Shown: positions 43,978 through 64,000, counted from the first letter of the stretch. The stretch: 64,000 bases of DNA from Sphingomonadales bacterium (GCA_038238915.1 JBBSFH010000003.1:105294-169293), one strand, 5' to 3'. Numbers and translations are program-made. Notes: generated by a model not told the origin, from the letters alone.

Positions 43978-44202
43978 CAATGTCCTCCCCGACGATCGCT
44001 TTTCTACTTTCGCGTAAAGAATACGACATTCGAGTAGGATGCAAGGGGGTTCGGCGCGAATCGATCGATCAGGATCGTAGAAACCTCCGCCGGGTTGACG
44101 CGCATTGCCCGCGCCGTATCTACTGCCGAGTAGGATTCGTAGACTGGCGGGCAACTATCCGCCTCCAGCTCTGCGACGTGGACGAGAGAACGGAGGGACG
44201 CG

Positions 44203-47021: not shown

Positions 47022-47023
47022 GC

Positions 47024-48165: not shown

Positions 48166-49641
48166 TCAGCGGCGTGGCGGTGGTATCGTACGCGCTGAGG
48201 TGCCGCTTGGAGGAGCGGTCCTGTTCGGAGCGCCAGCCTGCGCTGGCCCTGCGGCCACGTGCGGTGCCGTTGTTGCGTCCGTTCTGGATGTGCTGCCTGC
48301 ACCTGCGACGGGTGCCGCATTTCCGCCCGCCGGTGGAGGCGTGACCACCGTGCCACCCGAAGCACCCGTCGCGCCACTGCTGCCGGTTGCGGGCGGCGGC
48401 GGAAGCGGCGGTGCGACCACGCTTGCCGGGATCGGTGCCCCCGCGCTTGCCAGGCGCGTATCCATCGCCGTGCGCCGCGCCGTCTCGGCGTCGCGCACGC
48501 CTGCCGCGCGCGTGCTATCCGATGCGCTCGCCAGCCGTGCCTCCTCTTGCGGATTGAGCGTGTTGACGCGGATGCGGTCCACCTCCTGAACACCCGCGAG
48601 CCGGGCGAGCGGCACATAATCGCTGCGGAAGACAAGCTCGACCTGGCTATTGAGATCGACGCTGGTGTTCGTTTCCTCGGTGGTGCGCGTCTGTTCGGTG
48701 GTGACATAGCCGATGGTGTTCTTGACGCTGGCAGATGCGCCCCATGGCCCCATGCCGAAGCTGCCGCTGGCGGCGATCTCGTTGTGCATATCGAAGCTCG
48801 ATCCGCGATCGTCGTTGGCGGCGCTGCGTGTATCGATGTGAAAGCGCATTCCCGCGCTGATCCGCCCGCTTTCGATGACGATGCGTTGCAGGCCCATCAT
48901 CACCATCGAGGAGAGCATCTGCTGCCGGTTCTTCGCCATCGCCGCGCGCGCGAAGCCCACCAGGCCCTCGGGATCGCCGCTCGGCACAGGATCTTCGGGG
49001 CGCAGCAAAAGCCCGCCGCGCAGCGCGCCCTCGCTCGGCATCTGCTGTCCGGGTGCCAGGACGAGACGGGTCTCGCGGTCGCGCTGGGCTTGGGCTTCGG
49101 CGCGTTCGTCGGGCGTCATCGCGGCGCGATCCTCGGCACTGGTATCGTCCTCGGGGCCCTGGACGCGGAAGTTGGGGAATTTATCCGCGAGCCACGCGCG
49201 CGCGCCGGACACGCCCACCTGCGCGTCGGCGAACCCTTCGGTGCTGGCTGCTACGTTGCGGATCAGATCGAGATAGGCCTGCAGCTGCTGCTGGTTGCTA
49301 TCGTTCATCGCCTTGAAGACGCCGGTGATCAGCTCGGTGACGAAGCGCGGGAAAGAGACCGCGTTCAGCACCGCCTGCGTGGTGCCCGCGAGCCGATCGG
49401 TGGCGACGCCCGAGTAAGCATGACCCGCGCCGCCCTGCGCCATGGCGAGCGGGGCGGGAGCAGCCTCAGCCTGCTGCGCGAGCGCGCGAGCTGTGTGCGC
49501 CACCTTGACGAGCGCGCCCGCGATCTCGCGGCGGGTTTCGGGATGGAGCGCGTGATAGCGTTCGGACGCGGTGAGCAGATCGCGGACTGCCCCGCGAACC
49601 TCCGGGGTTGGCGCTGCGCGTGCGAGGGCGGGCTGGCCCAC
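48166..49641 (-). CDS. Unknown family 1, paralog A (491 aa; long Pro/Ala/Gly-rich C-terminal tail)
   Basis: Shares three blocks with paralogs B, C and D: SFPRFVTELITGVFKAMNDSNQQQLQAYLDLIRNVAAS, KNRQQMLSSMVMMGLQRIVIESGRISAGMRF and VELVFRSDYVPL. No signal peptide, TM segment or nucleotide-binding motif seen. Confidence 0.75.
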   Translation of the reverse strand: MGQPALARAAPTPEVRGAVRDLLTASERYHALHPETRREIAGALVKVAHTARALAQQAEAAPAPLAMAQGGAGHAYSGVATDRLAGTTQAVLNAVSFPRFVTELITGVFKAMNDSNQQQLQAYLDLIRNVAASTEGFADAQVGVSGARAWLADKFPNFRVQGPEDDTSAEDRAAMTPDERAEAQAQRDRETRLVLAPGQQMPSEGALRGGLLLRPEDPVPSGDPEGLVGFARAAMAKNRQQMLSSMVMMGLQRIVIESGRISAGMRFHIDTRSAANDDRGSSFDMHNEIAASGSFGMGPWGASASVKNTIGYVTTEQTRTTEETNTSVDLNSQVELVFRSDYVPLARLAGVQEVDRIRVNTLNPQEEARLASASDSTRAAGVRDAETARRTAMDTRLASAGAPIPASVVAPPLPPPPATGSSGATGASGGTVVTPPPAGGNAAPVAGAGSTSRTDATTAPHVAAGPAQAGAPNRTAPPSGTSARTIPPPRR

Positions 49642-49644
49642 GGC

Positions 49645-50619
49645 TCAGGCCGCGAGCGCCGCCCACGGCGAGCGCGCGGGCGCGGTCACCGGCGCGGCGG
49701 TTGGGCCAGTGGCGGGAGAAGCGGCGGGCGCGCTCGCCTCGCCGATCTTGAGCGACAGTTGCAGCCAATCGATCGCGGCGGGGATCACCGGATGATCGAG
49801 CGCGACCAGCGGACCGGCGGTCGTGACGAGCTTGGGCGCGGCGTCCGCCAGCCACGACAGGATCGTCATCCCCGCCGCCGCCCGGCTGGCGTGGAGCGAA
49901 GTGTGCACATCGGGGAGCCGACCCATGCGCAGCGCCCCCGCGACCGCGCCCCAGACGTCGTGCGCGCCAAGCGCGAGGCGCAGATCGGGGTGGTGGAAGA
50001 TCGCGAACGCGGCCTTGATCGTGGCGAGCAGATCCTGCGCCATCATTACGGTGAGCCCGCTCGCAGCATTGGCCAGCCCCTCGGCAACGCGCGTGGCGGC
50101 GCGGCGCACGCGCGCCTGCTGCTGGAGGCCGCCCCACTGCGGATTGGTGGCGGCTTCATCGAGTTTGTAGAGCGCCTCGGTCAGTTCGATCATATCGGTT
50201 TCGAAATCGGCGTTGCCGGGATGATCGGCGGCGGCGACGCCGGTATCGCTGCCGAACAGGCGCGCGAATAGCGCCGCGCGCTCGTCCGGCGTGGCGCGCG
50301 TGTGGCGGTGTTGCCAGAATTGGGCGACATCGGGGGCGGCTCCGCCGAGTGCGAATGGAACGCCCGCACCGCTGAGCCCGGTCAGCGCCTCGGCAGCCCC
50401 GATCAGCCCGGCTGCATCGAGTTCGGCGGCAAGATACAGCCCCGCGATCGCGCGCAGTTGCGCGGAATCGGCGGTCGCGATGGGTGGCGGCAGGTCGATG
50501 CCCAGATCTTCGAGCGCCGTGGCAAAGCTGTGCGCTTGCGCGATCAGCCGCTCGGCCTCGCCGATCGCGCGCAACATCGTGGGTGCGTCGGGCGCTTCGT
50601 GGAGAGGACGCCCGGCCAT
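49645..50619 (-). CDS. Unknown family 2, short member (324 aa, all-helical)
   Basis: Blocks FWQHRHTRATPDERAALFARLFG, NADFETDMIELTEAL and HHPDLRLALGAHDVWGAV align to the C-terminal half of the 612-aa protein at 54210..56048. The start overlaps the stop of paralog B by 1 nt (TGATG). Confidence 0.7.
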   Translation of the reverse strand: MAGRPLHEAPDAPTMLRAIGEAERLIAQAHSFATALEDLGIDLPPPIATADSAQLRAIAGLYLAAELDAAGLIGAAEALTGLSGAGVPFALGGAAPDVAQFWQHRHTRATPDERAALFARLFGSDTGVAAADHPGNADFETDMIELTEALYKLDEAATNPQWGGLQQQARVRRAATRVAEGLANAASGLTVMMAQDLLATIKAAFAIFHHPDLRLALGAHDVWGAVAGALRMGRLPDVHTSLHASRAAAGMTILSWLADAAPKLVTTAGPLVALDHPVIPAAIDWLQLSLKIGEASAPAASPATGPTAAPVTAPARSPWAALAA

Positions 50620-51830
50620 CAGGCGTGCGCCGGGGCGGGCGTTGCGGCGGCGGCGGAGGGTTTGTTGGGATTGTACGGGAGCGAATTGCCCTGGATGACG
50701 CTCATCATCTCGGGCGTCGCCATCTTCTCCAGCGGCAGGTAATCGCTCTTGAAGTTGACGCGCACGTCGCCCGAGAGCTTGGCCTTGACTTCGGCCTTGC
50801 TTTCGCTCGTCTCATCGACCGCCGAGCCGACGGTGGCCATATGTTCCTGGACGTTTTCGTTGGTGTCGCTCGCGGAAACGCCCCAGCCGCTGAATCCCGC
50901 AGACGCCACGTTGCGGTTCATCGAGCTTTCCTTGTCGAACATCGATGCGCGCGCATCGGTCTTGGCAGTATCGCTCGCGCGCATATCGAACACGACTTTG
51001 GCATTTATTGACCCATCCGTAATAACTATGCGGTTTATACCGAGCATGACCATCGATGATAGCAGTTGCTGGCGTTGGCGAGCCATCTGCAATCTTGCGG
51101 CGGTGACGAGACGCGCCTCCGCGTTCGCGTCCGACAGATCAGTGATCGGCGGGTTGATGTTCATCTCGGCACTGATCTTGGCAAGCGCAACGGCGGGATC
51201 GTCGCCAACCGGCACGAGACGAGCGACGGGCGGCGCGGGATCGCCCTCGGCGAACGACGAGCTGCTCGAGATGTCGACAGCAAGCGCATCGGGAAAGCGC
51301 CCGGCGAGATAATCACGCCCCGCGCCCTCGCCGATATTGTCGGTCATGAATTGATCGACGGTCTTGGCGACGTTGGAGATCAGCTCGCCATAGGCTCGCA
51401 TCTGTTGCATCGAACTTTCGACGATCGCCTGGAAGACGTTCTTGATCAGACCACCGACGAACTTGGGGAAATCGACCTTCTGCACCAGCGCGCCGAACTG
51501 CTCGACACCCTGTTTGACCGCGCCCGCCTCGAAATTTTTGCCGACTTGTCCGGGTAGTCCCTTGGTAAGTTTGCCAAAGTTCTTGATGCCATCTGCCTGA
51601 TCCATCGCGCTCGCGGTAGGCGGCGTCGGCGTCGCCGACAGCGCGGTGCTCACCGCGTTCGGATCGGCGATGTAGCTCATCACTTTCACCATATCGCGCG
51701 CGAGCTGCTGCTGTTCGGGCTGCGGCAGTGCGCCAAACGCGGGGGCGGCGATCAGCATATCGCGCACCTGCGGACGCACGGCGGCAAGCGCCTGCCCGCT
51801 TGTCCAGCCGGGCGGATCGGCGAGCGCCAC
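50619..51830 (-). CDS. Unknown family 1, paralog B (403 aa)
   Basis: Blocks DFPKFVGGLIKNVFQAIVESSMQQMRAYGELISNVAKT, RQRQQLLSSMVMLGINRIVITDGSINAKVVF and VRVNFKSDYLPL. Confidence 0.75.
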   Translation of the reverse strand: MALADPPGWTSGQALAAVRPQVRDMLIAAPAFGALPQPEQQQLARDMVKVMSYIADPNAVSTALSATPTPPTASAMDQADGIKNFGKLTKGLPGQVGKNFEAGAVKQGVEQFGALVQKVDFPKFVGGLIKNVFQAIVESSMQQMRAYGELISNVAKTVDQFMTDNIGEGAGRDYLAGRFPDALAVDISSSSSFAEGDPAPPVARLVPVGDDPAVALAKISAEMNINPPITDLSDANAEARLVTAARLQMARQRQQLLSSMVMLGINRIVITDGSINAKVVFDMRASDTAKTDARASMFDKESSMNRNVASAGFSGWGVSASDTNENVQEHMATVGSAVDETSESKAEVKAKLSGDVRVNFKSDYLPLEKMATPEMMSVIQGNSLPYNPNKPSAAAATPAPAHA

Positions 51831-51834
51831 GGCC

Positions 51835-53136
51835 TTACGCCCGGGCGGGAGCGGCGGCGGGCGCGGCGGCGGCTGGCGGCGGCGTGGCCACGCGTGCCGA
51901 CGGCAACACGTTGGGATCGACCGGCGTGGAGTTTCCCTGGATCGCGGCGATCATGCCGGGCGTCGCCATCTTGTCCAAGGGCAGGTAATCGCTTTTGAAG
52001 TTGACTTCGACCGCGCCCATCAAATCGGCCGACGCCTGCAAGGACTCGACGCTCGAATCCTGCGCCGCGCTCATCGCGGTGATGATAGGCTTATTCTCGA
52101 ACTGGTATGTGCCCTTGGCGTAACGCTCGCTCGAACTGTCGACCGCGCCGTCCTTGTCGCGGGTGTAATTACCCTTACTGCTGCCATCGTAGGTGCCAGA
52201 CCCCGCGTAGGTCGTCTGGACGTTGCCATTCTGGTCGCGCGCCATGTCCATCGCCTGCGCGCTACGCTCGAGTTTACGGTTTTCCGCCGCTTGGAACTTG
52301 AACATCACCTTGGCCGAAATCTTGCCGCTGGTGACGACGATGCGATTGATGCCAAGCAGGACGGTGCTCGCCATCATCTGCTGGCGCTGCTTGGCAAGCT
52401 GCATTCGCGCGCCGACGACGAGCGCGCGCTCGACATTCTCGTCCGAGAGATCGAGGCTTTTCAGCTCGCCGTTCTCGAAACTCATCGAGCTGTTGACCTT
52501 CGCCCGCGCCTCACCCTCGTCCACCCCCTCGCGCAATTTCAGCTTGGGCTGCGGGTTGTCGCTCATCTCGTCGACGCCGATTTCGAACATGTCGGGGAAC
52601 TTTTGCTTAACATGATCGCGGCCGGCGTTTTCGGAGACATTGTCTTTCATGAATTCTTCCAGCGATTTGGCCACACTGGCGACCATCTTGCTGAATTCTT
52701 CCATCTGGGTAATCGACGTGTGAACGATCGCGTCGAACACGTTGGTGATCAGCCCGCCGACGAAGCCGGGAAAGTTGATGCCCTGGACGTAGTTGACCGC
52801 CGCAGTCACGCCCGCGTTGATCGCATCGGCCTTGAACCCACCCTTGCCGATCTCGCTCACTGCCTTCTGATGATCCTGAAACGTCCCCTCCTGTACCGGA
52901 CCGAAGGCACGCGCTGCGGGCGCGATGCCAAGGCCACCCGGAAGCCGCTGGCCCTCAAAACCCTCGGGCGCAGCCAGATAATCGGAGACAAGCGCCAGAT
53001 CCTTGGCGAGCGCGCGCTGCTTCTCGGGCGACATTGCAGCAAACGCGGGGCTACGCGTGAGAAGCCCGCGCACCGCCTCGCGCACTTCGGCGCGCGGGGT
53101 GGGCAGACGGACCGGGGGGGCGGAGGGCGGATGCAT
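51835..53136 (-). CDS. Unknown family 1, paralog C (433 aa)
   Basis: Blocks NFPGFVGGLITNVFDAIVHTSITQMEEFSKMVASVAKS, KQRQQMMASTVLLGINRIVVTSGKISAKVMF and VEVNFKSDYLPL. The N-terminal block PRAEVREAVRGLLTRSPAFAAMSPEKQRALAKDLALVSDYLAAP is shared with A and B. Confidence 0.75.
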   Translation of the reverse strand: MHPPSAPPVRLPTPRAEVREAVRGLLTRSPAFAAMSPEKQRALAKDLALVSDYLAAPEGFEGQRLPGGLGIAPAARAFGPVQEGTFQDHQKAVSEIGKGGFKADAINAGVTAAVNYVQGINFPGFVGGLITNVFDAIVHTSITQMEEFSKMVASVAKSLEEFMKDNVSENAGRDHVKQKFPDMFEIGVDEMSDNPQPKLKLREGVDEGEARAKVNSSMSFENGELKSLDLSDENVERALVVGARMQLAKQRQQMMASTVLLGINRIVVTSGKISAKVMFKFQAAENRKLERSAQAMDMARDQNGNVQTTYAGSGTYDGSSKGNYTRDKDGAVDSSSERYAKGTYQFENKPIITAMSAAQDSSVESLQASADLMGAVEVNFKSDYLPLDKMATPGMIAAIQGNSTPVDPNVLPSARVATPPPAAAAPAAAPARA

Positions 53137-53162
53137 CGGACTTCACTCCGTCTTGGAAGGGA

Positions 53163-54197
53163 TCAGGCGGCGAGTTGCTGGAGCGCCTGCGGACTCACCT
53201 CGAACTCGGCCGGACGCAGATAAAGGCTGATGCGCGGCGGCGCGTTGACGCCAGCGCGCACCGAGAGGATCGAGAAACGCCCGGGCCATACCTCGTCCTC
53301 GGGCGTGAACGCGGTCATCCAGCGACTGAGCGCGGCGAGTTCGCGCGGGCGTTCGGACATGCCGAGCGTCAGCAGGCTCAAAAACTCGGGCGGCAGATCG
53401 GGGATGCGCGCCAGCTGGACGTACAGCTCGAATTCGGGGCCGTGGTGCCCGATCCCGAACGCCATCAACGCCGAGGCGGGAGGAAGCTCGAAGCGCCCGC
53501 CGAGCACCAGGCCCAGGATTTGCATGATGCCGGGCAACCGCTCCCCCATCCCCAGTTCGTCGAGCACCGGACCGAGATCGGAGAGTTTGAGCGCATCGGG
53601 ATAGATGAACGTCAGCCGCTGGCCGCCCATATCGCGCTGCGCGCTGATCGTGGTGAACAGCGGCCTCAGCCCCGGCAGCATCCGCTGCGCGGTGGTGACC
53701 ACCTGGAACAGCGCAGGCGGCAGCTGCATCATCGCGGCGGGCGAGGTTTCGTAATAGACCTTGGAGGCATACAACCCGTCGCTATCGGTCGCAGCGCCGA
53801 AGAACGCGCCATAATCGAGGTTGTCCGATCCGAACCCGCGATAGGGTTCGGAGCGCTCGTCGAACCAGCGCAGCGTATCGCGCCCCAGGAACGCGCCGAC
53901 CATGCGGCGCATCTCGCGCGTCGCCTCGTCGCGCCGGTCCGCACCGCTTGCCTGCGGGGGCAGCGGTTCGATCGTGAAGCGGAGCTTGACGGGCTGCGTC
54001 TCCGAAAAGCTCGGCTCGAACGGTGCGGCCATCGGCGAGAGCGCGTTCCTCGCATAGCGCGGATCGCCTGCGGGCATCGGAAAGGTGCGGCCGATCAGGT
54101 CCGCCATCGGCGGTCCGGGATCGGCGGCTCCCAGCGCGCGCGCCGCCTGCGCGAGCCGCTGGGTGACCTTGGCGGAGAGGGGTTGGATGCGCATCAT
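53163..54197 (-). CDS. Hypothetical protein, possibly ABBA/DMATS-like aromatic prenyltransferase fold (tentative)
   Basis: 344 aa with recurring beta-strand motifs spaced like alpha-beta-beta-alpha repeats: VKLRFTIEPL, SKVYYETSP, QRLTFIYPD, EFELYVQL, RISLYLRPAEF. Assigned by pattern only. Confidence 0.3.
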   Translation of the reverse strand: MMRIQPLSAKVTQRLAQAARALGAADPGPPMADLIGRTFPMPAGDPRYARNALSPMAAPFEPSFSETQPVKLRFTIEPLPPQASGADRRDEATREMRRMVGAFLGRDTLRWFDERSEPYRGFGSDNLDYGAFFGAATDSDGLYASKVYYETSPAAMMQLPPALFQVVTTAQRMLPGLRPLFTTISAQRDMGGQRLTFIYPDALKLSDLGPVLDELGMGERLPGIMQILGLVLGGRFELPPASALMAFGIGHHGPEFELYVQLARIPDLPPEFLSLLTLGMSERPRELAALSRWMTAFTPEDEVWPGRFSILSVRAGVNAPPRISLYLRPAEFEVSPQALQQLAA

Positions 54198-54209
54198 GAT
54201 GCTCTCTCC

Positions 54210-56048
54210 CTAGTGACGTTGTGCGTTGCCGTTGCGCATTCCCATGCCCATTGCCGCGCCCGGGATCTCGTCCAGGAACTCGCGCGCGAACGCCGGGATC
54301 TGCACGGGTTGCGAGGTCATCACCGGAGACATTCGCGGCTGGCTCATCTCGTCCACACGGCTGTCCGACGTGGCGGTATCGGCGAGCCAGAGTTCGCACG
54401 CGTTGACGAGATCATAGTCGGACGGGTTTTTGGTCGCCTGGCTCGACAGCGTTGGCGCGGGCGAGCGCACGTCCATCATGTCGATCAGCACGCCCATCGG
54501 GCGCATGATCTTCACGATGTTGTTCGCCAGCCACGCGGTGATGATCGCGCCGCAGGTCGCGAGTACGCGGTAACGCGAACTGGTGCGCGCGCCGTGGAGG
54601 TCGCGCGTGGCGACCACGTCGATCACGCCCCACATGTCCTTGGCACCATGCGCGGCCTTGATCTCGGGATCGTCCAGGAGCGCGATCATCTGCTTGATCT
54701 CGCCCTGCAGTTCGAGCGCGGCGTAGTAAGTCATGCCAAAGCCGTGCAGCGACAGATTGGAGGCAAGATCGCGCGCCGCCTTGCGCATCTGCTGTGCTCC
54801 GGTTGCACTCGGCATCGCCGCGCGCAGCAGCTTGTCGACGTCCTGGTTGCGCACGAACTGCGAGACCGAGGAGACGAAGCGCAGCCACAGATCATTAAAA
54901 TCGGTATTGCCCTGGATCGCCGGATTCCCACCCGGCTGGCCCATCGTCATCGCGTAGAGATCGCGCCGCTCGGGCTCGCTCATGCGGTTGGGCGATTCCT
55001 TCCAGCGCTTGTAGAGGATTTGCCCGGCATTGCCCTTGCCGATCGCGAGCATGCCATTCTGGGCATTTTCGAGCAGCTTGTCGACGACCTGGAAGGCTTT
55101 TAGCTCATCGAGCATCGCCGCGCAGATCACCGGCCCCATCAGGCGCACATTGTCCGACACGATCTCGGTGTTCGAGACCGCGTCCAGATCGGGCAGATCG
55201 ATACCGATTTCGCTGGTGACGCCGTTGCCGGCAATGTTCTGGACCGTATCCAGCGCCTCGCTGACCTTGCGGCTGAGCTGCGGCGTGAACTGATCGACTT
55301 GCTTGAGCGCAAGCGCGCGCATCACCTTGGCGAACTCGGTCGCATCTACGTTCTGTGCGGGAGGGTGGGTGCCCTGTGTGTAGTTGGTACTGCCGTCCTG
55401 GTCATCGGCAATGGCACCGAGCTGGCCCAGAATGGCGAGCACGCGGCTGGATAGCGGCTTGTACGATTGTGCCTCGCCAACCGCCTTGAAGAAGGCCTTC
55501 CCCATAGCGGGCATCAGTGGGCTATCGGCGTCGGAGATCAGCGCGAAGTCGATGAACTGGTCTTGGGGCTGATCAGCCGGGTTAGGCGGCACATAGCCAA
55601 GACTGATTTTGACGGGGGGCGGCGTCACGCCGTCCAGCACCAGCAACCCGATTGTCAGCGCGCAGTCCACTGCGTTCGCTGTGTTGAGATTGCCCTTGAG
55701 GAGTTTGAGTGCGACGCCCGGCGGCTCGGAATCGAGCGATCCGACCGGATTGCCGAGTGTATCGTTCAACAGGCCGGTCCGGGCGTTGAACTGATCGCGC
55801 GCGGCAACAAACAGCGGATCGCAAAACTCGCCGCGTTGATCGTCGATGACGTCGAGCGTCAGCGCGATCCGGGCGCGTTCGGCCTTCTCCTCGATCGAAT
55901 AGAAAACCTGATCGGTCTCGCGGCCGACCCCCTGGCCGCCACGCGAGCGGGCAGAGCGATCGAGCTGGATCAATCGTTCGTTCAGCCGATGCCGTTCGGC
56001 AAGCTCGCGCTGGGCGATATCGCGGTACTGGATGGTGGTCACACTCAT
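54210..56048 (-). CDS. Unknown family 2, long member (612 aa)
   Basis: ATG at 56048, 8 nt after AAGGAG, inside ORF 54210..56393. Alternative ATGs at 56102 and 56099 overlap the S8 stop. The C-terminal half (LYKRWKESPNRMSEPERRDLYAMTMG, NTDFNDLWLRFVSSV, DDPEIKAAHGAKDMWGVI) is paralogous to 49645..50619. Confidence 0.7.
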   Translation of the reverse strand: MSVTTIQYRDIAQRELAERHRLNERLIQLDRSARSRGGQGVGRETDQVFYSIEEKAERARIALTLDVIDDQRGEFCDPLFVAARDQFNARTGLLNDTLGNPVGSLDSEPPGVALKLLKGNLNTANAVDCALTIGLLVLDGVTPPPVKISLGYVPPNPADQPQDQFIDFALISDADSPLMPAMGKAFFKAVGEAQSYKPLSSRVLAILGQLGAIADDQDGSTNYTQGTHPPAQNVDATEFAKVMRALALKQVDQFTPQLSRKVSEALDTVQNIAGNGVTSEIGIDLPDLDAVSNTEIVSDNVRLMGPVICAAMLDELKAFQVVDKLLENAQNGMLAIGKGNAGQILYKRWKESPNRMSEPERRDLYAMTMGQPGGNPAIQGNTDFNDLWLRFVSSVSQFVRNQDVDKLLRAAMPSATGAQQMRKAARDLASNLSLHGFGMTYYAALELQGEIKQMIALLDDPEIKAAHGAKDMWGVIDVVATRDLHGARTSSRYRVLATCGAIITAWLANNIVKIMRPMGVLIDMMDVRSPAPTLSSQATKNPSDYDLVNACELWLADTATSDSRVDEMSQPRMSPVMTSQPVQIPAFAREFLDEIPGAAMGMGMRNGNAQRH

Positions 56049-56098
56049 GGCTGGTCTCCTTTGCTCCGGTTGGCCTTTGCGTTTGCGTTGCGTGGCCA

Positions 56099-57529: not shown

Positions 57530-58317
57530 GCGTGTGCTCCCGTGCCGTTGATTGCGCCGTTAGCCACCGGCGGCGGTGGCGCGAACGGGCGCAGATCAAA
57601 CGCCATCGAGGTGGCGACCATAGGCGCGGGCTCGACGCGAAGTTCACCCGCCCATTGATGCGGCGCGGGTGCGAGCAGCAGTTCGTCCGCGCTCGCCTTC
57701 ACCACCGCTACCGGCTCGCCGCCAAGCGTCACCGATGGCGGCCCCGCCTGCATGAGGTTGCGCCCGCGCACGCGCATCAGCGGCATGTCGCCCTCGCCGC
57801 CGGGGACGGGCACCACATGCTCCATCAGCGGCGCGGACGCGCGTTCGAGTGCCTTGCGCAGCCGATCGATGGGCAGGTTGGTCACGCGCCCGATCGCTGA
57901 ATCGCCGCCACGCGCCATGCTCTCCTTGAGCTTTGAGACGGTGCGCACGCCGACCCATTCGAGCTTGCGGCGATCCTCCTCGGACAACCCGTCGCCCAGT
58001 TCGTCGAGCGAGGTATCATGCGGACCGTCCGCAAACGCGACCGCGTTCTCCTCGATCATCGGCCGGGTGATCGCGGCGAACACGAGGTGGAACACGCTCG
58101 CCTGCACATCCGCCGCCCCGGCCGGGCGAATGCGGATTTCGCCCGCCGTAAACTCCACCTGCGCGCGCAGATCGAGCGTGATGTCCTTGATCGCGAAGGT
58201 GAGCGGCAGATTGAGGTTATGCGCCTTCACCGCCATCGCGGTCTGCGCCTTATCGAGCTGGCTTTGCACCGCCTGAATGAAGTTTTCGAGCGGGAGGGCG
58301 GCGGTGGCGGTGGTCAT
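57526..58317 (-). CDS. Hypothetical protein (263 aa): N-terminal helix + beta-hairpin domain, HhH-like middle, IPT/TIG-like C-terminus
   Basis: ATG at 58317 inside ORF 57526..58419, with an ATGA overlap onto the 75-aa ORF. PLENFIQAVQSQLDKAQTAMAVKAHNLNLPLTFAIKDITLDLRAQVEF; LEWVGVRTVSKLKE...LPIDRLRKAL; MRVRGRNLMQAGPPSVTLGGEPVAVVKASADELLLAP. Confidence 0.6.
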   Translation of the reverse strand: MTTATAALPLENFIQAVQSQLDKAQTAMAVKAHNLNLPLTFAIKDITLDLRAQVEFTAGEIRIRPAGAADVQASVFHLVFAAITRPMIEENAVAFADGPHDTSLDELGDGLSEEDRRKLEWVGVRTVSKLKESMARGGDSAIGRVTNLPIDRLRKALERASAPLMEHVVPVPGGEGDMPLMRVRGRNLMQAGPPSVTLGGEPVAVVKASADELLLAPAPHQWAGELRVEPAPMVATSMAFDLRPFAPPPPVANGAINGTGAHA

Positions 58318-58541
58318 GGCCGTGCCTCCCACGTGAGGTGGAGGCGCGAGGGGGGCGCATCGAACTGGGTTCGTGTGACGGTGCGCGGGAAATCGGCGAA
58401 CAGCGCGCCGCCGGTCCACGCGATTTCGATGGGGAGCTTCATTTCGATGCGGGTGACGCGCACGCCGACGCTACCGCCCGCGACCATTGCGCCCTCGGCC
58501 ACCTCCGCGATCATATCGCCCATTTGGCGCCGCGCGCTCAC
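58314..58541 (-). CDS. Small hypothetical protein (75 aa)
   Basis: MSARRQMGDMIAEVAEGAMVAGGSVGVRVTRIEMKLPIEIAWTGG... Coupled on both sides: its GTG start overlaps the stop of paralog D (GTGA) and its TGA stop overlaps the next ATG (ATGA). Confidence 0.5.
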   Translation of the reverse strand: MSARRQMGDMIAEVAEGAMVAGGSVGVRVTRIEMKLPIEIAWTGGALFADFPRTVTRTQFDAPPSRLHLTWEARP

Positions 58542-59677
58542 CGTGTTGCTCCAGCGGGTGCGGGCGGCGGGGCGGACGCGATCACGACCGGCGGGGGCAG
58601 CGTGGCGACGGCGCTTGGGGGTTGCGTTGGTGCAATCGGTGGCGTGGCAGCGCGCTGCGGTCCGCGCGCGTGGCGTTCGAGCTGGCCGCGCTTGGCATCG
58701 TCCACGAAACGATCGAGCGGCACGGTCTCGCTGGCGAAGTTGATCTTCACTTCGCCAAATAACTGCGCCTTGAGTTCGCTATCGGCCTGGACATTGACGC
58801 CCATGGTCGAAACCTTCGTCGTCGGAGCGTCGTAGGTGGTCGAGCCGCGCGCTCCCCACTGTGTCGCATTGCTTTGCGGATCCGAACCGGTCGCATAATC
58901 GAATTTCTTGTGATCGGCAGCAGACGCGCGGAAGCGGACGTTGGCGTTGATCGAGCCATCCTTGACCACAACGCGATTCATTCCGAGCAGCACCATCGTC
59001 GAGAGCGTCTGCAACCGCTGCTTCGCCACGGTCTCGCGCGCATGGGCGAGGATCTGCTGTTCGAGCACCTCCGAAGTCAGTTCCTGTCCTTCCAGGCCAT
59101 AATCTGCGAGCACGCGCGGTGCCTCCGCCTCCCCGTCCGGCCCGGCTGTCCTGGCGATCGGCACCAATGTTGGTGTGCCGCTTTCGTGGTTCAGCGCCAC
59201 GTCACGCGGATATTGTTCGACAAGATAGTCACGCGCCTGGTTCGGCGTGACATTCTCCTGCGTGAATTGTTCGAGCGGCTTGGCGACGGCTGCGACAAGG
59301 TCGGCGAAGCTCTCCATCTGGCGGATCGACGCGTCGACGATCGCGTCGAACGTGCCGTGGACCAGGCTGGCAACGAAGGCGGGGAAATCGACTTCATCGA
59401 CAAGGTTGCCCACGCGCCGCCCGAGCGCGTCGGTTGCGAGTTCGCGCTTGGCGGGCGGAGAGGCGGGCGCTGGCGTTTGCGACGCGCTATCGGCGGGCGG
59501 GCCCGCCGCGTCGGGAATCTCGCGCCCGAACGCATCGCGCGCGAGGCTGCGCACGAGCGGCGCACGGCCGTAACTCGGCGGTGGAGGAGGGGGGCGCAGA
59601 CCCGGCACGTGCAACCGATCAGGCGCTGACGTGGAGGGGATCGAGTTCCCATTCGTTGGTGCGGTCGTGACGCCCAT
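58538..59677 (-). CDS. Unknown family 1, paralog D (379 aa; start uncertain, overlaps the end of the upstream gene by 59 nt)
   Basis: Blocks DFPAFVASLVHGTFDAIVDASIRQMESFADLVAAVAKP, KQRLQTLSTMVLLGMNRVVVKDGSINANVRF and VKINFASETVPL. Pro-rich N- and C-termini. Confidence 0.7.
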   Translation of the reverse strand: MGVTTAPTNGNSIPSTSAPDRLHVPGLRPPPPPPSYGRAPLVRSLARDAFGREIPDAAGPPADSASQTPAPASPPAKRELATDALGRRVGNLVDEVDFPAFVASLVHGTFDAIVDASIRQMESFADLVAAVAKPLEQFTQENVTPNQARDYLVEQYPRDVALNHESGTPTLVPIARTAGPDGEAEAPRVLADYGLEGQELTSEVLEQQILAHARETVAKQRLQTLSTMVLLGMNRVVVKDGSINANVRFRASAADHKKFDYATGSDPQSNATQWGARGSTTYDAPTTKVSTMGVNVQADSELKAQLFGEVKINFASETVPLDRFVDDAKRGQLERHARGPQRAATPPIAPTQPPSAVATLPPPVVIASAPPPAPAGATR

Positions 59678-62600
59678 CGCCGTGCAGGATCACGCGAACC
59701 GCCGATCGATGCTCGGGCTGCGTGGCGTGGGTGAAACGATGGCGCAGTTCGACCGTCATCCCCGCAACCGTCTCGCTGTCCGGCCCGTCGAGGACTTCTC
59801 CCTCGACCGCAAGTGACCAGCCGTCGCTCAGCCCCGCATTCTCGGGCATCACGCGCACATCGCCGACCGTGCCGCCGCCATAATGCCACGCGATCTTGAC
59901 CGCGCCGAAGGTTCTGCCGTGCTCGTCGGGCATTCGGGGCCAGTCCGCGACGCTGATCATCCCGGACTGGATATCGGCGTTCATCATGACTTGCGTTCGA
60001 GGCGCGCGCATGCCGTCCAGCTGTTCGAGCGAGAAGGTTACCCCGTCGCGTGCGGTGGTTTCGGTGCGGCGCATCCCCAACGGCGGCGGCCCGACGTCCA
60101 GCCCGCGCGCGGCGGTGCGCGTGGGCGGGGGCGGGGCCATGCGGCGCGGCGCGTAGGATTGCGCGTAGCCCGCCGGAGGCGATCCCCGGTTGGGCTGACG
60201 GCCGCCGGTGTCGGGCGCGTACATGATTTGCAGGATATTGTCCTCGACGCGCGCTTGCCGCATCTCGTAATCGTTCATGAACTCCTCGAAGCGCATGATG
60301 TAGCGGCTGCCTGTCGTGTGTGTATCCAGGTAGCTGCCGGGCGCTTGCGGTGTTCCGACCACGCGGTCCCAAGGGTCGGCGACGCGAACATAGGCGTTGG
60401 TGCCGTCCGAATAGAGGCCGACCACCACAACCGCGTGACCGCTATCGAACCCCGTCTGCCCCGGTGCCATGAGTTTGGTGACCACCATCGGGCCGTGCGC
60501 TTCAACCAACTGGCGGAAGCCATCGACGTTGAAGCATTGCGGCGGCCCAACTTCGAGTCCTACCTGCTTGGCAAACCGCGCCCGGGCCGCAGCGAGCGGC
60601 GATTGCCCGTCGGTGAGCGAAATGGCGCACAGCCGCGCCAGCATGTCCTCGTCTACCGATACGCGGTCGCGCCATCCAACAACCATGGCGGTTGCAGCGC
60701 CGACGCAGGTCGTACCGGTATGCTGCGGAACCAGGTCCACATCGTCCCAGGTGACGCTGAACGCGCCCGAGTCCATCGCGCGCGCGGGGGTGGATTTCGC
60801 ATACGCCAGCAGATGCCCGAACAGCCCGCCCGAGGGCGCGGCCTTCAGGTGGCCGATGTAGCGCAGCTTGGAGAAGTCGAAGCGCAGATTGGCGATATCG
60901 TCGGGCGAGGCCCAGTTGGGCTGTTCCGACGTGAGCGGTTGTCCTGCGGCGCGATAGGCTTCGAGCACCAGTTCCGAACAGAAAAAGCTGTCGTTGGAAG
61001 CCGTGCCCATGTCGATTCGGCCCGCGAACGCGCGGCAGCGGTCGGACAGGCCGTTGGGAAGCGCCGAGCACAGGCGCTGATCGATCTGGAACAGCGCCTG
61101 GCGCGCGATGCCGATGTGGTTGTAATCCTGCCCGATGTGGGCGGCGGCGGCGTCGGCCACCTGCTGGCGCTGATCGCGCGTGAGGCCGGGCACCCGGAAC
61201 GCGACTGCGACCGTGGCCGAAGCGATCGCGTCGCCGAGAGGCACCATGCGCACGCCCTCGCCCACCGCTTCGATCACCTGCCCGCCCTGATCCACATACA
61301 GCATCACGTGGCTGACCTGCCCGCTGGTGGCGGCGCGGATCGCACGGCTGATCGTCGCGTCCGTAGTCGAAAGGATGATGTCGCCCACCTGGAGCGCGTT
61401 CATCCCGATCGACTGGCCGCCGACGCCCGGATCGAGCGGGATTTCCGCATCGAACAGGCGGGCGGTGCGCGGGGGGAGGCCAAGCGACTGGCCGGTGGGC
61501 AGCGATACGCGTTGCTGGATCATCTGCATGAAATGATCCCAGTCCCACGGCGCGGCGTTGGGACAGGATGTATGCGTGGTGTGCGCGTCCGCTTCCGAAT
61601 GGCCGATGATGTGCGTGCGATCGGTCGGGATCGAGTATTTGTCGCAGAGATAGCTGACCAGCGCGGCCGATTCGGCGTATTGGATATCGGTGGGCGGTAG
61701 CGCAGGCAGCGTGGTGCGCCCGTAGGTCGCGCCGCGCTGGTTCACGCAGACGTGCTCAATCCCGATACTGCGCGAATTGACCCCGTGTGCGTGCCACGCG
61801 ATGTCCAGTTCGCGCACGAACTGCACGATCTCGCCATCCTGGCCCACGAGGTAATGAGCGCTCGAGTTCGCGTCGGCGCGCGTGAAGTGGCCAACCGTGC
61901 TTCCGGTCGTGTTCGCGTCGGTGATGTGGATGACGACGCGATCGATCGTGCGGCCCGGCCGAGAGGTGAAGGCGGGCGAGGCCTCGAAGCGCGATGCGCG
62001 CGGGTAATCGGGCGTCGCGGCGAGCGCGCCTGACCATGCCTGCGTCTGCACGGACGGATCGCTCGCGGCGGGGCCCTCAATCCCCATCGTATCGGGATCG
62101 ACGTCCATCGCACTGGCGCGCGGCCCGCATTCTCCGAGCGCCGCCGCCATGCCGAGCGTGGTCGCGACCGAACGCTGGACCGAGACGTAGAAATCGACCG
62201 GCGAGAAGCCTGCGCCCACGCCCACCTGCGCGCTCACGCCCTGGAAATTGGCCTGGGTATCGAACAGCGCCGATGCGCCCGCCACGATCCCCTCGCCGCC
62301 CGAGATGGTCGCCGAATTGCTCCAGCCGCCGAACGCATCGATCGCGCCACGTATCACGGTGATTTGCACCGACGCATTGACCGACAACACGAAGCCGACA
62401 TCGAACTGCGCGCTGCCGTAGACGCCCAGGCTGTTGTCGGGACCGAAGATGATGCCAGCCCCCAAAGTGCCGCCCGCGCCCAATCCTGCGCCCACGGACG
62501 GCCCGAGGCCGATCGACACGGGCGTGCCCGCAGCAGCCGATGCGGTTGCGGCAAGGCGGAGTGCAGCGATCATCGGTGCGAGCGGGCCGGTCAGCACCAT

Positions 62601-63410
62601 CAGCGCGGCATCGGCGGCCACCCGCGCGACGCCGCTCAGGCGGGTGACCGGGGGTGCCGTCACCGGGTTGCGCACGGACCCGATTGTCACGTCGTTCGAC
62701 ATCGCGCTCGCGGGGCTTCGTGTGCCGTTCCATGCCATCGACTTGGCTGCGGCGGGGGGTGGGGTCGATGTGGCTGGGGACGGCGTTGCTGCCGACGTGG
62801 ACGGGGCGGATGCGCTGGCCTTGTCCGGCGCTGGTGCGGTAGGCGCAGGCGCAGGCATCGGGCCGAAGCCGTCGTCATAATGCGCCGCAGGTGGCGGATT
62901 GGTGTTCGCGGGCTGACTGCTTGCGCGTTCGGCGGGGCGCTGGCCGGGCTGGGCGGTATCGCCAGCCCAGTCGAGCAAACCCTCGCCCGGCCCGCGCGCC
63001 CGGCCGGGGATTACCCGCACCCGGCGCAGACTGCGGCCGGTCAGCGCGCGTAGCGAGACATAGGGGCTATCCGTAGTGGGGAGGACTTCCACTTCGAAGG
63101 CCCCAGGCCCTGTCGCGGGCGCGGTTGCGAGCCCGAAATAGAGCTTCTCCGATCCGACGAACCGCGCGAGGATTTCGGGCGGCAGCACATAGACCGCCTC
63201 GCCGCGAGGGGCTGCGAGCGGACCGCCCGCACGGCTCGAATAGAAATTGCCCGCCGAACGCCGCGCCTTGCCCTCGGGTGCCAGCAGTGCGGGATCGGTC
63301 GCGACGGCCACCTCGGCGCGGCGAGGTTCGCCGTGGGTGCGGATGGTGAAGCCCAGCATCGGGAAGCGGTCGTTCACCTCGAGGCGGGTCGGGCGGATCA
63401 TCGCTGGCAT
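59619..63410 (-). CDS. Giant multidomain protein (1263 aa): unknown N-domain, Pro-rich linker, Gly-zipper hydrophobic region, Amidase_2 (PGRP-type N-acetylmuramoyl-L-alanine amidase), YiiX/permuted-papain NlpC/P60-like domain, second papain-like Cys peptidase domain, unknown C-domain
   Basis: ATG at 63410 follows the TAG of the upstream gene inside ORF 59619..63731. Amidase_2: RTIDRVVIHITDANTTG...AHYLVGQDGEIVQFV...AWHAHGVNSRSIGIEH...IIGHSEA...CPN (nt ~61512-61958). YiiX-like: QVGDIILSTTDATISRAIRAATSGQVSHVMLYV...NDSFFCSELVLEAY (nt ~60897-61400). Papain-like: QHTGTTCVGAATAMVVGW...DSGHAVVVVGLYSDG...VRVADPW (nt ~60252-60764). Gly-rich: GLGPSVGAGLGAGGTLGAGIIFG... (nt ~62142-62639). Confidence 0.8.
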   Translation of the reverse strand: MPAMIRPTRLEVNDRFPMLGFTIRTHGEPRRAEVAVATDPALLAPEGKARRSAGNFYSSRAGGPLAAPRGEAVYVLPPEILARFVGSEKLYFGLATAPATGPGAFEVEVLPTTDSPYVSLRALTGRSLRRVRVIPGRARGPGEGLLDWAGDTAQPGQRPAERASSQPANTNPPPAAHYDDGFGPMPAPAPTAPAPDKASASAPSTSAATPSPATSTPPPAAAKSMAWNGTRSPASAMSNDVTIGSVRNPVTAPPVTRLSGVARVAADAALMVLTGPLAPMIAALRLAATASAAAGTPVSIGLGPSVGAGLGAGGTLGAGIIFGPDNSLGVYGSAQFDVGFVLSVNASVQITVIRGAIDAFGGWSNSATISGGEGIVAGASALFDTQANFQGVSAQVGVGAGFSPVDFYVSVQRSVATTLGMAAALGECGPRASAMDVDPDTMGIEGPAASDPSVQTQAWSGALAATPDYPRASRFEASPAFTSRPGRTIDRVVIHITDANTTGSTVGHFTRADANSSAHYLVGQDGEIVQFVRELDIAWHAHGVNSRSIGIEHVCVNQRGATYGRTTLPALPPTDIQYAESAALVSYLCDKYSIPTDRTHIIGHSEADAHTTHTSCPNAAPWDWDHFMQMIQQRVSLPTGQSLGLPPRTARLFDAEIPLDPGVGGQSIGMNALQVGDIILSTTDATISRAIRAATSGQVSHVMLYVDQGGQVIEAVGEGVRMVPLGDAIASATVAVAFRVPGLTRDQRQQVADAAAAHIGQDYNHIGIARQALFQIDQRLCSALPNGLSDRCRAFAGRIDMGTASNDSFFCSELVLEAYRAAGQPLTSEQPNWASPDDIANLRFDFSKLRYIGHLKAAPSGGLFGHLLAYAKSTPARAMDSGAFSVTWDDVDLVPQHTGTTCVGAATAMVVGWRDRVSVDEDMLARLCAISLTDGQSPLAAARARFAKQVGLEVGPPQCFNVDGFRQLVEAHGPMVVTKLMAPGQTGFDSGHAVVVVGLYSDGTNAYVRVADPWDRVVGTPQAPGSYLDTHTTGSRYIMRFEEFMNDYEMRQARVEDNILQIMYAPDTGGRQPNRGSPPAGYAQSYAPRRMAPPPPTRTAARGLDVGPPPLGMRRTETTARDGVTFSLEQLDGMRAPRTQVMMNADIQSGMISVADWPRMPDEHGRTFGAVKIAWHYGGGTVGDVRVMPENAGLSDGWSLAVEGEVLDGPDSETVAGMTVELRHRFTHATQPEHRSAVRVILHGDGRHDRTNEWELDPLHVSA

Positions 63411-63414
63411 GGGG

Positions 63415-63798
63415 CTACCTCGGTCCGATGGGCGACGCGGGCGTCGCGGGGTTGGTGTGCGTTGGAAGCGGACGGGCACGCGCGCGGATCGCGCGGCGCT
63501 CGAAATCGGGGACGCTGCCGAGTAGCGCGCTGAGCGCATCATCATCGGTGACCTCGGCAATCGGTCCATGTGCGGCCTCGAAGCGCTCGACCGCGTCCGA
63601 AAACAGCCGCGCGAACAGCTTGGCCTGCACCGGTCCCGCCACGATGCGCGAATGGACGTGGACCGAGTCGGTCTCGGGGCGGAACTGGCCGAAATCCAGC
63701 AGGAACTCGAAGGCATTGTGGCCGACTTCACAATAGTTCGCGTAAACCGCGAGCGGTGCGCCGTTGGTAGCCGGGGCGAGTGCGGGTGGGGTCATCAC
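63415..63798 (-). CDS. DUF3467-like small protein (first gene of the sigma-54 operon)
   Basis: (GTG)MMTPPALAPATNGAPLAVYANYCEVGHNAFEFLLDFGQFRPE...VHSRIVAGPVQAKLFARLFSDAVERFE. The YAN..V.H...EF.LDF core matches my recollection of DUF3467. Confidence 0.6.
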   Translation of the reverse strand: MMTPPALAPATNGAPLAVYANYCEVGHNAFEFLLDFGQFRPETDSVHVHSRIVAGPVQAKLFARLFSDAVERFEAAHGPIAEVTDDDALSALLGSVPDFERRAIRARARPLPTHTNPATPASPIGPR

Positions 63799-63807
63799 GC
63801 AGCGCGA

Positions 63808-63823
63808 TGCAATCGGCGTGCCA
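63808..63823 (-). promoter_or_regulatory. Sigma-54 (RpoN) -24/-12 promoter
   Basis: The minus strand reads cTTGGCACgccgaTTGCATcgcg, which is TGGCAC-N5-TTGCA, the full consensus. It lies in the 121-nt gap between the Fis-HTH regulator stop (63920) and the operon's first start codon (63798/63795). Confidence 0.6.
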
Positions 63824-63919: not shown

Positions 63920-64000
63920 TTACACGCCAACGCTGCGTTCGATGTTGTAGTGCGCAAGCTTGCGGTAGAGCGTCATGCGCGACCAGTTGAGTGCCTTGGC
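63920..64000 (-). CDS. 3' end (last 26 codons) of a Fis-type HTH regulator, probably a sigma-54 enhancer-binding protein; the rest lies outside the window
   Basis: The minus-strand frame reads ...AKALNWSRMTLYRKLAHYNIERSVGV*. This is the characteristic C-terminal HTH_8 (..S..TLYRKL..Y.I) of NtrC-family activators. Confidence 0.55.
   Translation of the reverse strand, partial: AKALNWSRMTLYRKLAHYNIERSVGV

Follow-up and report, generated by a model that had tools for sequence, protein, structure and literature searches.

An eleven-gene bacterial cassette of paralog families, proteases and an ABBA-fold protein, conserved in about eleven phyla

What does a bacterium use a closely packed operon for when most of its conserved products belong to no annotated family? 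This question is raised by a stretch of 64,000 nucleotides from a Sphingomonadales bacterium (GCA_038238915.1, JBBSFH010000003.1:105294-169293), here called the window, in which an original prediction made from the sequence alone had placed twelve minus-strand genes between 63798 and 48166. Open reading frame (ORF) listing and translation returned all of them as tightly packed, co-directional genes (g01 to g12, 48166-63795, minus strand; Table 1), and the protein lengths were reproduced. To refine the gene starts, ribosome-binding sites, gene overlaps and independent gene calls were used; for g01 the ATG at 63795, giving 126 aa, is the most likely start, and not the GTG at 63798 with which the predicted span began. 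From g01 to g12, consecutive genes are spaced by 4, -59, -4, -4, -4, 50, 12, 26, 4, -1 and 3 nt. An independent metagenome contig shows identical gene calls, and seven of the products are exact entries in a protein collection.

The spread of the gene set was surveyed in one genome per species. Among 185,579 species, 125 relatives of the g03 product, family-1 paralog D, were found, and the best 80 loci were analysed. They come from about 11 phyla, monoderm and diderm. The hosts among the Proteobacteria include Sphingomonas, Erythrobacter, Phenylobacterium, Massilia, Burkholderia, Ramlibacter, Lysobacter and Xanthomonas; further hosts belong to the Desulfobacterota, Acidobacteriota, Actinomycetota (Cellulomonas, Amycolatopsis), Chloroflexota, Cyanobacteria, Bacteroidota (Chitinophaga, Cytophagia), Gemmatimonadota and Armatimonadota. 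When the twelve window proteins were placed by tblastn, the order 02-03-(04)-05-06-07-08-09-10-11-12 was observed in essentially every locus that was long enough, and the distant Desulfobulbus and Burkholderia loci are arranged likewise. Each family-1 and family-2 paralog holds its own position across the loci; the duplications are therefore older than the spread. The original prediction had made its case depend on the gene neighbourhood in other genomes, where the genes proved strikingly syntenic. These results confirm that g02 to g12 are one coherent conserved unit.

The cassette is rare and patchy: beside the 125 matches in the 185,579 species genomes, g08 gave 231 clusters (50% identity) among 1.84 billion representatives. 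No relative of family 1 was present in 2.9 million viral contigs, and the cassette is therefore not phage-borne. Two contigs of the Allosphingosinicella metagenome-assembled genome (MAG) SMAG_U104 (L028 and L036) carry a copy each, which may mean two copies in a single genome. No description of this gene set was found in the full-text literature searched, subscription-only literature lying outside the scope of that search. The cassette fits no described system. That the gene set stays intact across Gram-negative and Gram-positive lineages argues for a single, closely integrated function that has escaped notice so far.

The sequences of the twelve products were scanned for motifs. None of them has a Walker A or Tat motif or an N-terminus that resembles a signal peptide, and a transmembrane-grade hydrophobic segment was likewise missing from all twelve, bar one borderline case in the glycine-rich part of g02. 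With this exception the scans agree with the earlier statement that ATPase/GTPase motifs, Sec/Tat signals and obvious transmembrane proteins are lacking, and library scans of the twelve products agree that phage tail and secretion signature proteins are lacking too. The domain calls made before for DUF3467, the g02 hydrolases and the S8 protease were all recovered with Pfam. Eight of the 11 conserved proteins fall into families without annotation, without a solved relative and without an entry in the defence, phage and secretion libraries.

Six of the proteins belong to the two paralog families. The family-1 copies (g03, g09, g10, g12) are interrelated at BLASTP E-values from 1e-22 to 9e-74 and the family-2 copies (g07, g11) at 4e-14, the latter pair also by hhalign (probability 99.8%, E 7e-29), which bears out the predicted count of four and two. 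By hhalign, family 1, family 2 and g05 are unrelated to each other. Neither family, nor the small g04, matched anything in Pfam, NCBIfam, PADLOC or PHROGs; when Pfam was relaxed to E 10, only hints of Trypco2 and Trp_DMAT were added. Profile searches against the PDB sequences gave no credible match for families 1 and 2, for g04 or for the DUF3467 protein g01. For paralog B there are at least 1569 homologues at 62-91% identity, which belong to the Alpha-, Beta-, Gamma- and Deltaproteobacteria and to the Actinomycetota; none of them has a name or a Pfam domain. Orthologues of paralog D hold the g03 position in all loci, and those of g04 (80-92 aa) keep theirs in most.

For paralog B, a model was calculated with AlphaFold2 (AF2). 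It has a mean predicted local distance difference test (pLDDT) of 63.5, with confident helices followed by a C-terminal part of low confidence that contains four long beta-strands. Foldseek of this model against the PDB and BFVD returned nothing significant (best neighbours E>=0.14), and the non-significant neighbours, which are beta-pore-forming toxins and ring-forming proteins, align only at their long hairpin stems. The resemblance to such stems is a lead, not a finding. The profile and structure searches proposed earlier thus place families 1 and 2 in no known machine. The family-1 proteins carry Pro/Ala-rich low-complexity linkers and tails.

Several details of these proteins were noted in passing. 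The short family-2 protein g11 ends in a conserved SPW[AS]x[LM][AG][AG] motif, which its proteobacterial, actinobacterial and Holophagales versions have and its Acidobacteriota, Bacteroidota and Lysobacter-type versions do not; paralog D often ends with (G)TR. These terminal motifs may be processing or modification signals. Counted from ATG 59677, the first 59 nt of paralog D overlap with the end of g02 (59619-59677), and its N-terminal ~80 residues are rich in proline and show little conservation. In Burkholderia, the called gene has 323 aa and aligns from residue 80 of the window protein, with 409 aa in the longest-ORF version; the true start of g03 may lie further downstream than 59677. In a Desulfobulbus MAG, paralog A is fused to a PrmA-like, class-I methyltransferase domain (713-716 aa), which hints at post-translational modification of cassette proteins. 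In Cellulomonas humilata BE332, the long family-2 protein and the ABBA-fold protein form one ORF of 991 aa without an internal stop. This arrangement was seen in one genome only, the two genes being separate in the sister genome (L023); a sequencing artefact is the alternative to a genuine Rosetta-stone fusion. The joint ORF suggests that family 2 is a partner or a substrate of g08.

The AF2 model of g08, built from 45 homologues, has a pLDDT of 80.2, a predicted template modelling (TM) score of 0.81 and five repeats of a beta-hairpin and a helix pair. The top Foldseek matches in the PDB were 6-DMATS, CymD, PriB, IptA and 5-DMATS (E 4e-10, probability 1.00, TM score 0.62-0.69, over the full length). 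There were 84 PDB matches at E<=0.001, and the top 50 of these (E 4e-10 to 2.6e-05) are all aromatic prenyltransferases. The possible ABBA fold that had been suggested for the 344-aa protein is thereby confirmed. The sequence is remote from these enzymes, with an identity of only 14-19%, and the operon around g08 is not a biosynthetic one. Against Pfam PF11991 (Trp_DMAT), g08 scored 13.1 with a cut-off of 25 bits, and four orthologues gave weak matches (best E 5.4e-4); a pooled Pfam scan of 73 orthologues from distant phyla returned only these four Trp_DMAT hits, two of Trypco2 and one methyltransferase fusion. No credible match was found when the g08 profile was run against the PDB sequences, and the 231 clusters from the exhaustive profile search are far fewer than expected had the search reached the canonical enzymes. 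We conclude that, according to the model, g08 has the ABBA fold and that it is not a Pfam DMATS member by sequence. K146 and Y149 (beta4), R194 and T196 (beta6) and R322, Y326 and R328 (beta10) are invariant, Y148 and Y259 nearly so. In the model the conserved Lys, Arg and Tyr residues lie on the barrel strands. The fold raises the specific possibility of protein prenylation in bacteria.

The subtilase g06 is predicted to be an active protease, as its catalytic triad D183/H235/S401 is invariant in 67 of 67 orthologues. It stays under the curated cut-offs for mycosin (TIGR03921, 135.3 vs 278.75 bits) and PatA (TIGR03895, 73.1 vs 421.05 bits), and also under that for the anti-phage protein IteS. 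The gene before it, g05, overlaps the g06 start with its stop by 4 nt, and the two are adjacent in essentially every locus that reaches this position. The g05 protein begins with an amphipathic helix and beta-strands, and this part weakly resembles Trypco2 (residues 9-57, profile positions 2-44 of 78) with 19.9 bits vs a Pfam cut-off of 24.2. Among 13 g05 orthologues, two matched Trypco2 at E<0.01 (best 2e-4); the g05 profile gave no credible match to the PDB sequences. Trypco1/2, renamed Pepco, form a pre-assembled beta-barrel pore that is activated once a neighbouring protease removes a tail (bioRxiv 10.1101/2025.11.14.688446). The Trypco family was originally defined by its co-occurrence with trypsin-like peptidases (PMC7159879). 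In the cassette, trypsin domains are carried by many orthologues of g02.

The giant protein g02 combines three enzymatic domains: Amidase_2 (3.6e-29), Peptidase_C92 of the YaeF/YiiX type (2.9e-13) and Peptidase_C70, which is AvrRpt2-like and papain-like (1.4e-17). It is also weakly similar to C39_2, and in the PHROGs its amidase hits endolysin families with E-values as low as 3.6e-24. Across 82 loci, the N- and C-terminal parts are kept in about 70-76, and the middle is variable. The conserved C-terminal part consists of the C70 protease and a further domain of ~230 aa. The repertoire of the middle was determined by Pfam on 28 full-length orthologues, in which Peptidase_C70 was present in 23, Amidase_2 and Trypsin_2 in 12 each, Peptidase_C92 in seven and DUF3238 in three. 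Cys902 and His992 of C70 are kept in 23 of the 28, those with a C70 domain. The cell-wall-hydrolase payload of the original prediction therefore holds for the window, where g02 has Amidase_2; across the family it does not, since the middle can be swapped between amidase, trypsin, C92 and DUF3238. The gene that follows g02 is always the conserved paralog D. Because the gene order is constant there is no variable immunity gene beside g02, and none co-varying with its middle was found across the loci. The N- and C-domains had no match in Pfam, NCBIfam, PADLOC and PHROGs and no credible one among the PDB sequence profiles, and no known trafficking domain was detected in g02. For the N-domain (62916-63410, minus strand), the metallothiol transferase FosB (VOC/glyoxalase fold) came up with E 0.008 over 52 residues; this is probably a chance hit, though no other lead exists for the domain. 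Residues ~230-450 are rich in glycine, serine and valine (…GLGPSVGAGLGAGGTLGAGIIFG…VGVGAGFSPVDFYVSV…) and contain the sole borderline hydrophobic segment of the locus. This stretch, present in only about 20 of the 82 orthologous loci, might be a membrane-inserting or beta-rich module.

How is the operon controlled? An exact sigma-54 (-24/-12) promoter, TGGCACgccgaTTGCA, precedes g01 and is the only match to the consensus in the window at <=1 mismatch. Directly upstream, the window edge cuts an adjoining gene for a sigma-54 enhancer-binding protein. Its translated fragment ends with …NWSRMTLYRKLAHYNIERSVGV and the stop, and the 26 codons are 73% identical to residues 286-311 of an orthologue in Sphingomonas sp. 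4RDLI-65 (L006), whose orthologous operon is preceded by that protein. The orthologue has 311 aa and consists of Sigma54_activat, AAA_lid_14 and HTH_8, with no N-terminal sensor domain. Since the sigma-54 interaction domain of the relatives (311-328 aa) begins at residue 9-22 and a Fis-type helix-turn-helix (HTH) stands at the end, these enhancer-binding proteins have no sensor domain. PspF and HrpR/S are built in this way, with AAA+ and HTH domains and no sensor, and a partner protein controls them in trans. Only ~10 nt separate the -12 element (TTGCA, which ends at 63808) from the GTG or ATG of g01 (63798/63795), and the predicted transcription start is therefore at the start codon or within a few bases of it. 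This suggests that g01 is leaderless or nearly so in the window. In 24 of the ~33 loci with g01, a sigma-54-like motif precedes this gene by 28-170 nt.

Across the 80 related loci there are two regulatory set-ups, and they are mutually exclusive. An enhancer-binding protein is encoded in 33 loci, in 30 of which DUF3467 is the first gene of the operon. A SARP/BTAD activator is encoded in 28, including those of the Actinobacteria, which are not known to have sigma-54; DUF3467 and the sigma-54 motif are absent from all 28. At least 61 loci thus have a dedicated activator upstream. The sigma-54 drive claimed for the operon is real in the window, with its exact promoter and adjoining activator gene. 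It is not a defining trait of the cassette, because the 28 loci have a SARP/BTAD activator and no sigma-54 motif, and as a family-wide trait it fails with about half of the loci using SARP/BTAD. DUF3467 is part of a regulatory module with the enhancer-binding protein. By analogy it is probably the regulatory partner of this activator and may act as a PspA-like anti-activator; its match in the PHROGs is limited to a family of unknown function. In the SARP/BTAD loci, a small protein of ~105-130 aa without a Pfam match stands just before g02 in place of DUF3467. It is present in 24 of the 28 and in no locus with an enhancer-binding protein, and has the motif LLEDRTAxFIVRIWCE…EWRGSVEHVxTGxRxFF…FMKPHL.

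How could these parts work together? We tentatively favour, with clearly less than even confidence, a transcriptionally switched, protease-gated module that would permeabilise the membrane and cut the wall for regulated lysis or release. A horizontally spread and normally silent cassette would, when its activator fires, yield a multi-protein cytoplasmic device that breaches the producer's own envelope. The sensor-less activator of the PspF/HrpS type would turn the operon on, probably being restrained in trans by DUF3467, and the four family-1 and two family-2 paralogs with their fixed positions would then co-assemble. The S8 subtilase, and perhaps C70 too, would cut pro-forms to give membrane-permeabilising oligomers; one of these pro-forms would be the Pepco-like g05, whose gene appears translationally coupled to that of the protease. 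The ABBA-fold protein, acting as a prenyltransferase, would put a lipid handle on one component or make a prenylated indole. Prenylation would give membrane affinity to proteins that have neither a transmembrane segment nor a signal peptide. Finally, the giant hydrolase would pass the lesion and cut the wall with its endolysin-type amidase.

This reading is favoured because it uses most of the constraining facts, namely two or three proteases predicted to be active, a Pepco-like protein coupled to one of them, a lipid-transferase fold and a dedicated on-switch. The lack of an immunity gene agrees with an enzyme that does no harm before its release. Since monoderms and diderms share the eleven genes, any mechanism of crossing the envelope must work without outer-membrane or Sec components. 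As to the self-assembling apparatus of the original prediction, the several structural-looking paralogs are indeed conserved; that they assemble is still something we infer, the one family-1 model being of low confidence.

A number of observations weigh against a lysis or release module. At 60-65% identity between phyla, the structural proteins are more conserved than is usual for effectors of suicide or defence, and ten accessory proteins are far above the apparent need for lysis. Amidase_2 was unmatched in 16 of the 28 g02 orthologues, beside the trypsin domain in 12 and DUF3238 in three, and wall cleavage is therefore not a universal output. The Trypco2 match of g05 stays below the Pfam cut-off, and Pepco is only half as large as this protein. 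In the family-1 model, the pLDDT of the beta-hairpin part is 29-59 and there is no significant fold match, and no prenyl acceptor was identified. The neighbours in the window are metabolic genes with no defence island, and PADLOC recognised a generic subtilase only.

Could the device be directed at other cells instead? The main rival, which we regard as rather unlikely, is an antibacterial or predatory weapon: families 1 and 2 would form a translocon or a released particle of a new kind that delivers the polymorphic g02 to competitors, with the producer surviving or a subpopulation being sacrificed. The constant ends of g02 and its exchangeable enzymatic middle are as in polymorphic effectors, many of the hosts are soil competitors or micropredators (e.g. 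Lysobacter, Chitinophaga, Massilia and Burkholderia), and the four and two conserved paralogs suggest a defined hetero-oligomeric structure. However, such a weapon is difficult to reconcile with a gene set that has neither an ATPase or other source of energy nor a signal peptide, that encodes no membrane or envelope-spanning protein and that bears no likeness to any secretion, tail or toxin-complex component. It also has no immunity gene that co-varies with the variable domain, and one and the same cassette serves monoderms and diderms.

The very high conservation of the structural proteins and the fixed paralog set would fit with a structural or developmental assembly, in which the paralogs form a scaffold inside the cell or at its envelope in the course of a regulated programme (e.g. 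a coat, a sheath or a compartment), the proteases and the hydrolase mature it and remodel the wall, and the prenyltransferase modifies it. The flexible Pro/Ala-rich tails of family 1, the fusions to modifying enzymes (paralog A with the PrmA-like methyltransferase, family 2 with the ABBA protein) and the activators of a developmental type, sigma-54 enhancer-binding protein or SARP, point in the same direction. Nevertheless we consider a scaffold unlikely, as the cassette is rare and patchy across lifestyles without a shared developmental trait, and an exchangeable hydrolase middle would be odd for a housekeeping maturation enzyme.

Improbable, too, is the boldest reading, a new nanomachine of some eleven phyla: the four and two paralogs, made with no export signal, would form a membrane-active hetero-oligomer, whose maturation needs both the subtilase and prenylation by g08 and that carries an exchangeable hydrolase across the envelope without ATP. 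If true, g08 would be the first aromatic prenyltransferase to lipidate large bacterial proteins.

Very unlikely is a natural-product pathway, like that of a ribosomally synthesised and post-translationally modified peptide (RiPP), in which the ABBA prenyltransferase and the S8 and C39/C70-type proteases mature a prenylated peptide or indole and the large proteins are scaffolds or precursors: the g08 fold is nearest to the tryptophan prenyltransferases of secondary metabolism, S8 and C39-like proteases mature cyanobactins and other RiPPs (the S8 protein being weakly PatA-like and g02 weakly C39_2-like) and SARP activators are typical of antibiotic clusters, but a short precursor with a hypervariable core is missing (the candidates have 320-490 aa and are 60-90% conserved), as are a transporter, a cyclase, YcaO and any other tailoring enzyme, the S8 score of 73 bits is far from the 421-bit PatA cut-off, and a peptidoglycan amidase has no place in the pathway.

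Be it suicide or lysis, a weapon or a scaffold, any of these would add a new bacterial multi-protein system and give DUF3467 a function.

The coordinates are collected in Table 1. On the 3' side of the operon (41749-48046) there are ordinary metabolic and transport genes, and no mobile-element or defence genes were seen among the three neighbours listed. No intrinsic terminator was detected between g12 and the convergent gene, and the Rfam scan of the window had no match. The sole signal of a repeat scan of the window was the DNA echo of the family-1 paralogy.

Table 1. Features of the locus, its neighbours and related loci (coordinates refer to the window unless a locus is named)
Feature	Position	Strand	Length (aa)	Basis or remark
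TonB-dependent receptor gene	41749-44154	-		window neighbour
Flavin monooxygenase-like protein gene	44964-47021	+		window neighbour
Family III CoA-transferase (CoA_transf_3) gene	47018-48046	+		convergent with g12
g12, family-1 paralog A, long Pro/Ala/Gly-rich tail, last gene	48166-49641	-	491	BLASTP to paralog B 2e-30
g11, family-2 short paralog	49645-50619	-	324	BLASTP/hhalign to g07
C-terminus of g11 (motif in text)	49645-49690	-		
g10, family-1 paralog B	50619-51830	-	403	BLASTP family
g09, family-1 paralog C	51835-53136	-	433	BLASTP to paralog B 9e-74; synteny kept
g08, ABBA aromatic-prenyltransferase-fold protein	53163-54197	-	344	AF2 and Foldseek
g07, family-2 long paralog	54210-56048	-	612	hhalign to g11
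g06, S8 subtilase, no signal peptide	56099-57529	-	476	Peptidase_S8 1.9e-35
g05, weakly Trypco2/Pepco-like N-domain	57526-58317	-	263	Pfam Trypco2 E 9e-4
g04, no known family	58314-58541	-	75	no library match
g03, family-1 paralog D	58538-59677	-	379	BLASTP to paralogs B 3e-42, C 1e-38, A 5e-23
g02, multi-hydrolase: N-domain 1-160, glycine-rich region, Amidase_2 486-618, C92 673-765, C70 890-1016, C-domain to 1263	59619-63410	-	1263	Pfam
Glycine-rich stretch of g02	about 62060-62720	-		
g01, DUF3467 protein	63415-63795	-	126	Pfam DUF3467 1e-13
Sigma-54 (-24/-12) promoter TGGCACgccgaTTGCA	63808-63823	-		exact consensus (TGGCAC-N5-TTGCA)
Sigma-54 enhancer-binding-protein gene, 3' end (last 26 codons and stop)	63920-64000	-		cut by window edge
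Paralog A-methyltransferase fusion, Desulfobulbus MAG	L001:12159-14300		713-716	
Family-2 long/ABBA ORF, Cellulomonas humilata BE332	L024:13679-16654		991	
Small protein in place of DUF3467, examples	L049:4366-4755, L053:4396-4791, L055:5296-5664			

How does the cassette compare with known systems? Contractile injection, phage-tail-like and type VI secretion systems were rejected, since the twelve products gave no match to a sheath, an Hcp/gp19 tube or a baseplate (gp25/gp27/gp6-like) in Pfam, NCBIfam and PHROG and have no Walker A motif; the non-significant BFVD and PDB neighbours of the family-1 model and the lack of viral relatives also rule them out. Type VII secretion was rejected with the mycosin score of the S8 protein given above and with no ATPase, transmembrane protein or WXG100 match. 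A cyanobactin or RiPP cluster was dismissed for want of a short variable precursor, the small g04 being conserved, and by the PatA score.

The polymorphic toxins with immunity share with g02 the conserved carrier parts and an exchangeable enzymatic module. Unlike in these toxins, the variable part of g02 lies in the middle of the protein and not at the C-terminal tip, and there is no linked secretion system. This class was rejected, as the variable middle is accompanied by neither a co-varying immunity gene nor a known trafficking domain.

The classic holin-endolysin cassette was rejected because a holin-like transmembrane protein is absent among the twelve products, the borderline segment of g02 apart. 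An endolysin-type muralytic domain without a signal peptide is present in g02, although in only 12 of 28 orthologues. Like an endolysin, the g02 amidase is made in the cytoplasm, has no export signal and would need a membrane lesion to reach its substrate. In contrast to these cassettes there is neither a holin nor a phage context, g02 has 1263 aa with two further protease-type domains, and more than half of its orthologues lack the amidase.

Similar in logic are the Pepco (Trypco1/2)- and EACC1-protease modules and the gasdermin-protease pairs. They, too, have a beta-rich non-enzymatic protein beside a protease, without a signal peptide or transmembrane segment, and g05 would by analogy be unleashed by cleavage to permeabilise the membrane. 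However, g05 has 263 aa with extra domains as compared to ~117 aa in Pepco, and its Trypco2 match is sub-threshold. The cassette protease has no sensor domain and the pair stands among nine more conserved genes; it is triggered by transcription and not by a STAND or Avs sensor, and PADLOC does not recognise the locus.

In its regulation, the cassette resembles the Psp and Hrp systems (PspF-PspA, HrpS-HrpV). Its activator of 311-328 aa has AAA+ and HTH domains only, and the activator gene adjoins a sigma-54 promoter; the first gene behind that promoter codes for a small protein which travels with the activator. DUF3467, in contrast, is unrelated to PspA or HrpV and its link to the activator is known here from gene co-occurrence, and half of the cassette family has a SARP and a different small protein instead of the whole module. 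Taken together, the resemblances that remain are of logic: to protease-licensed pore effectors, to an endolysin that needs a lesion, and to control of the PspF type.

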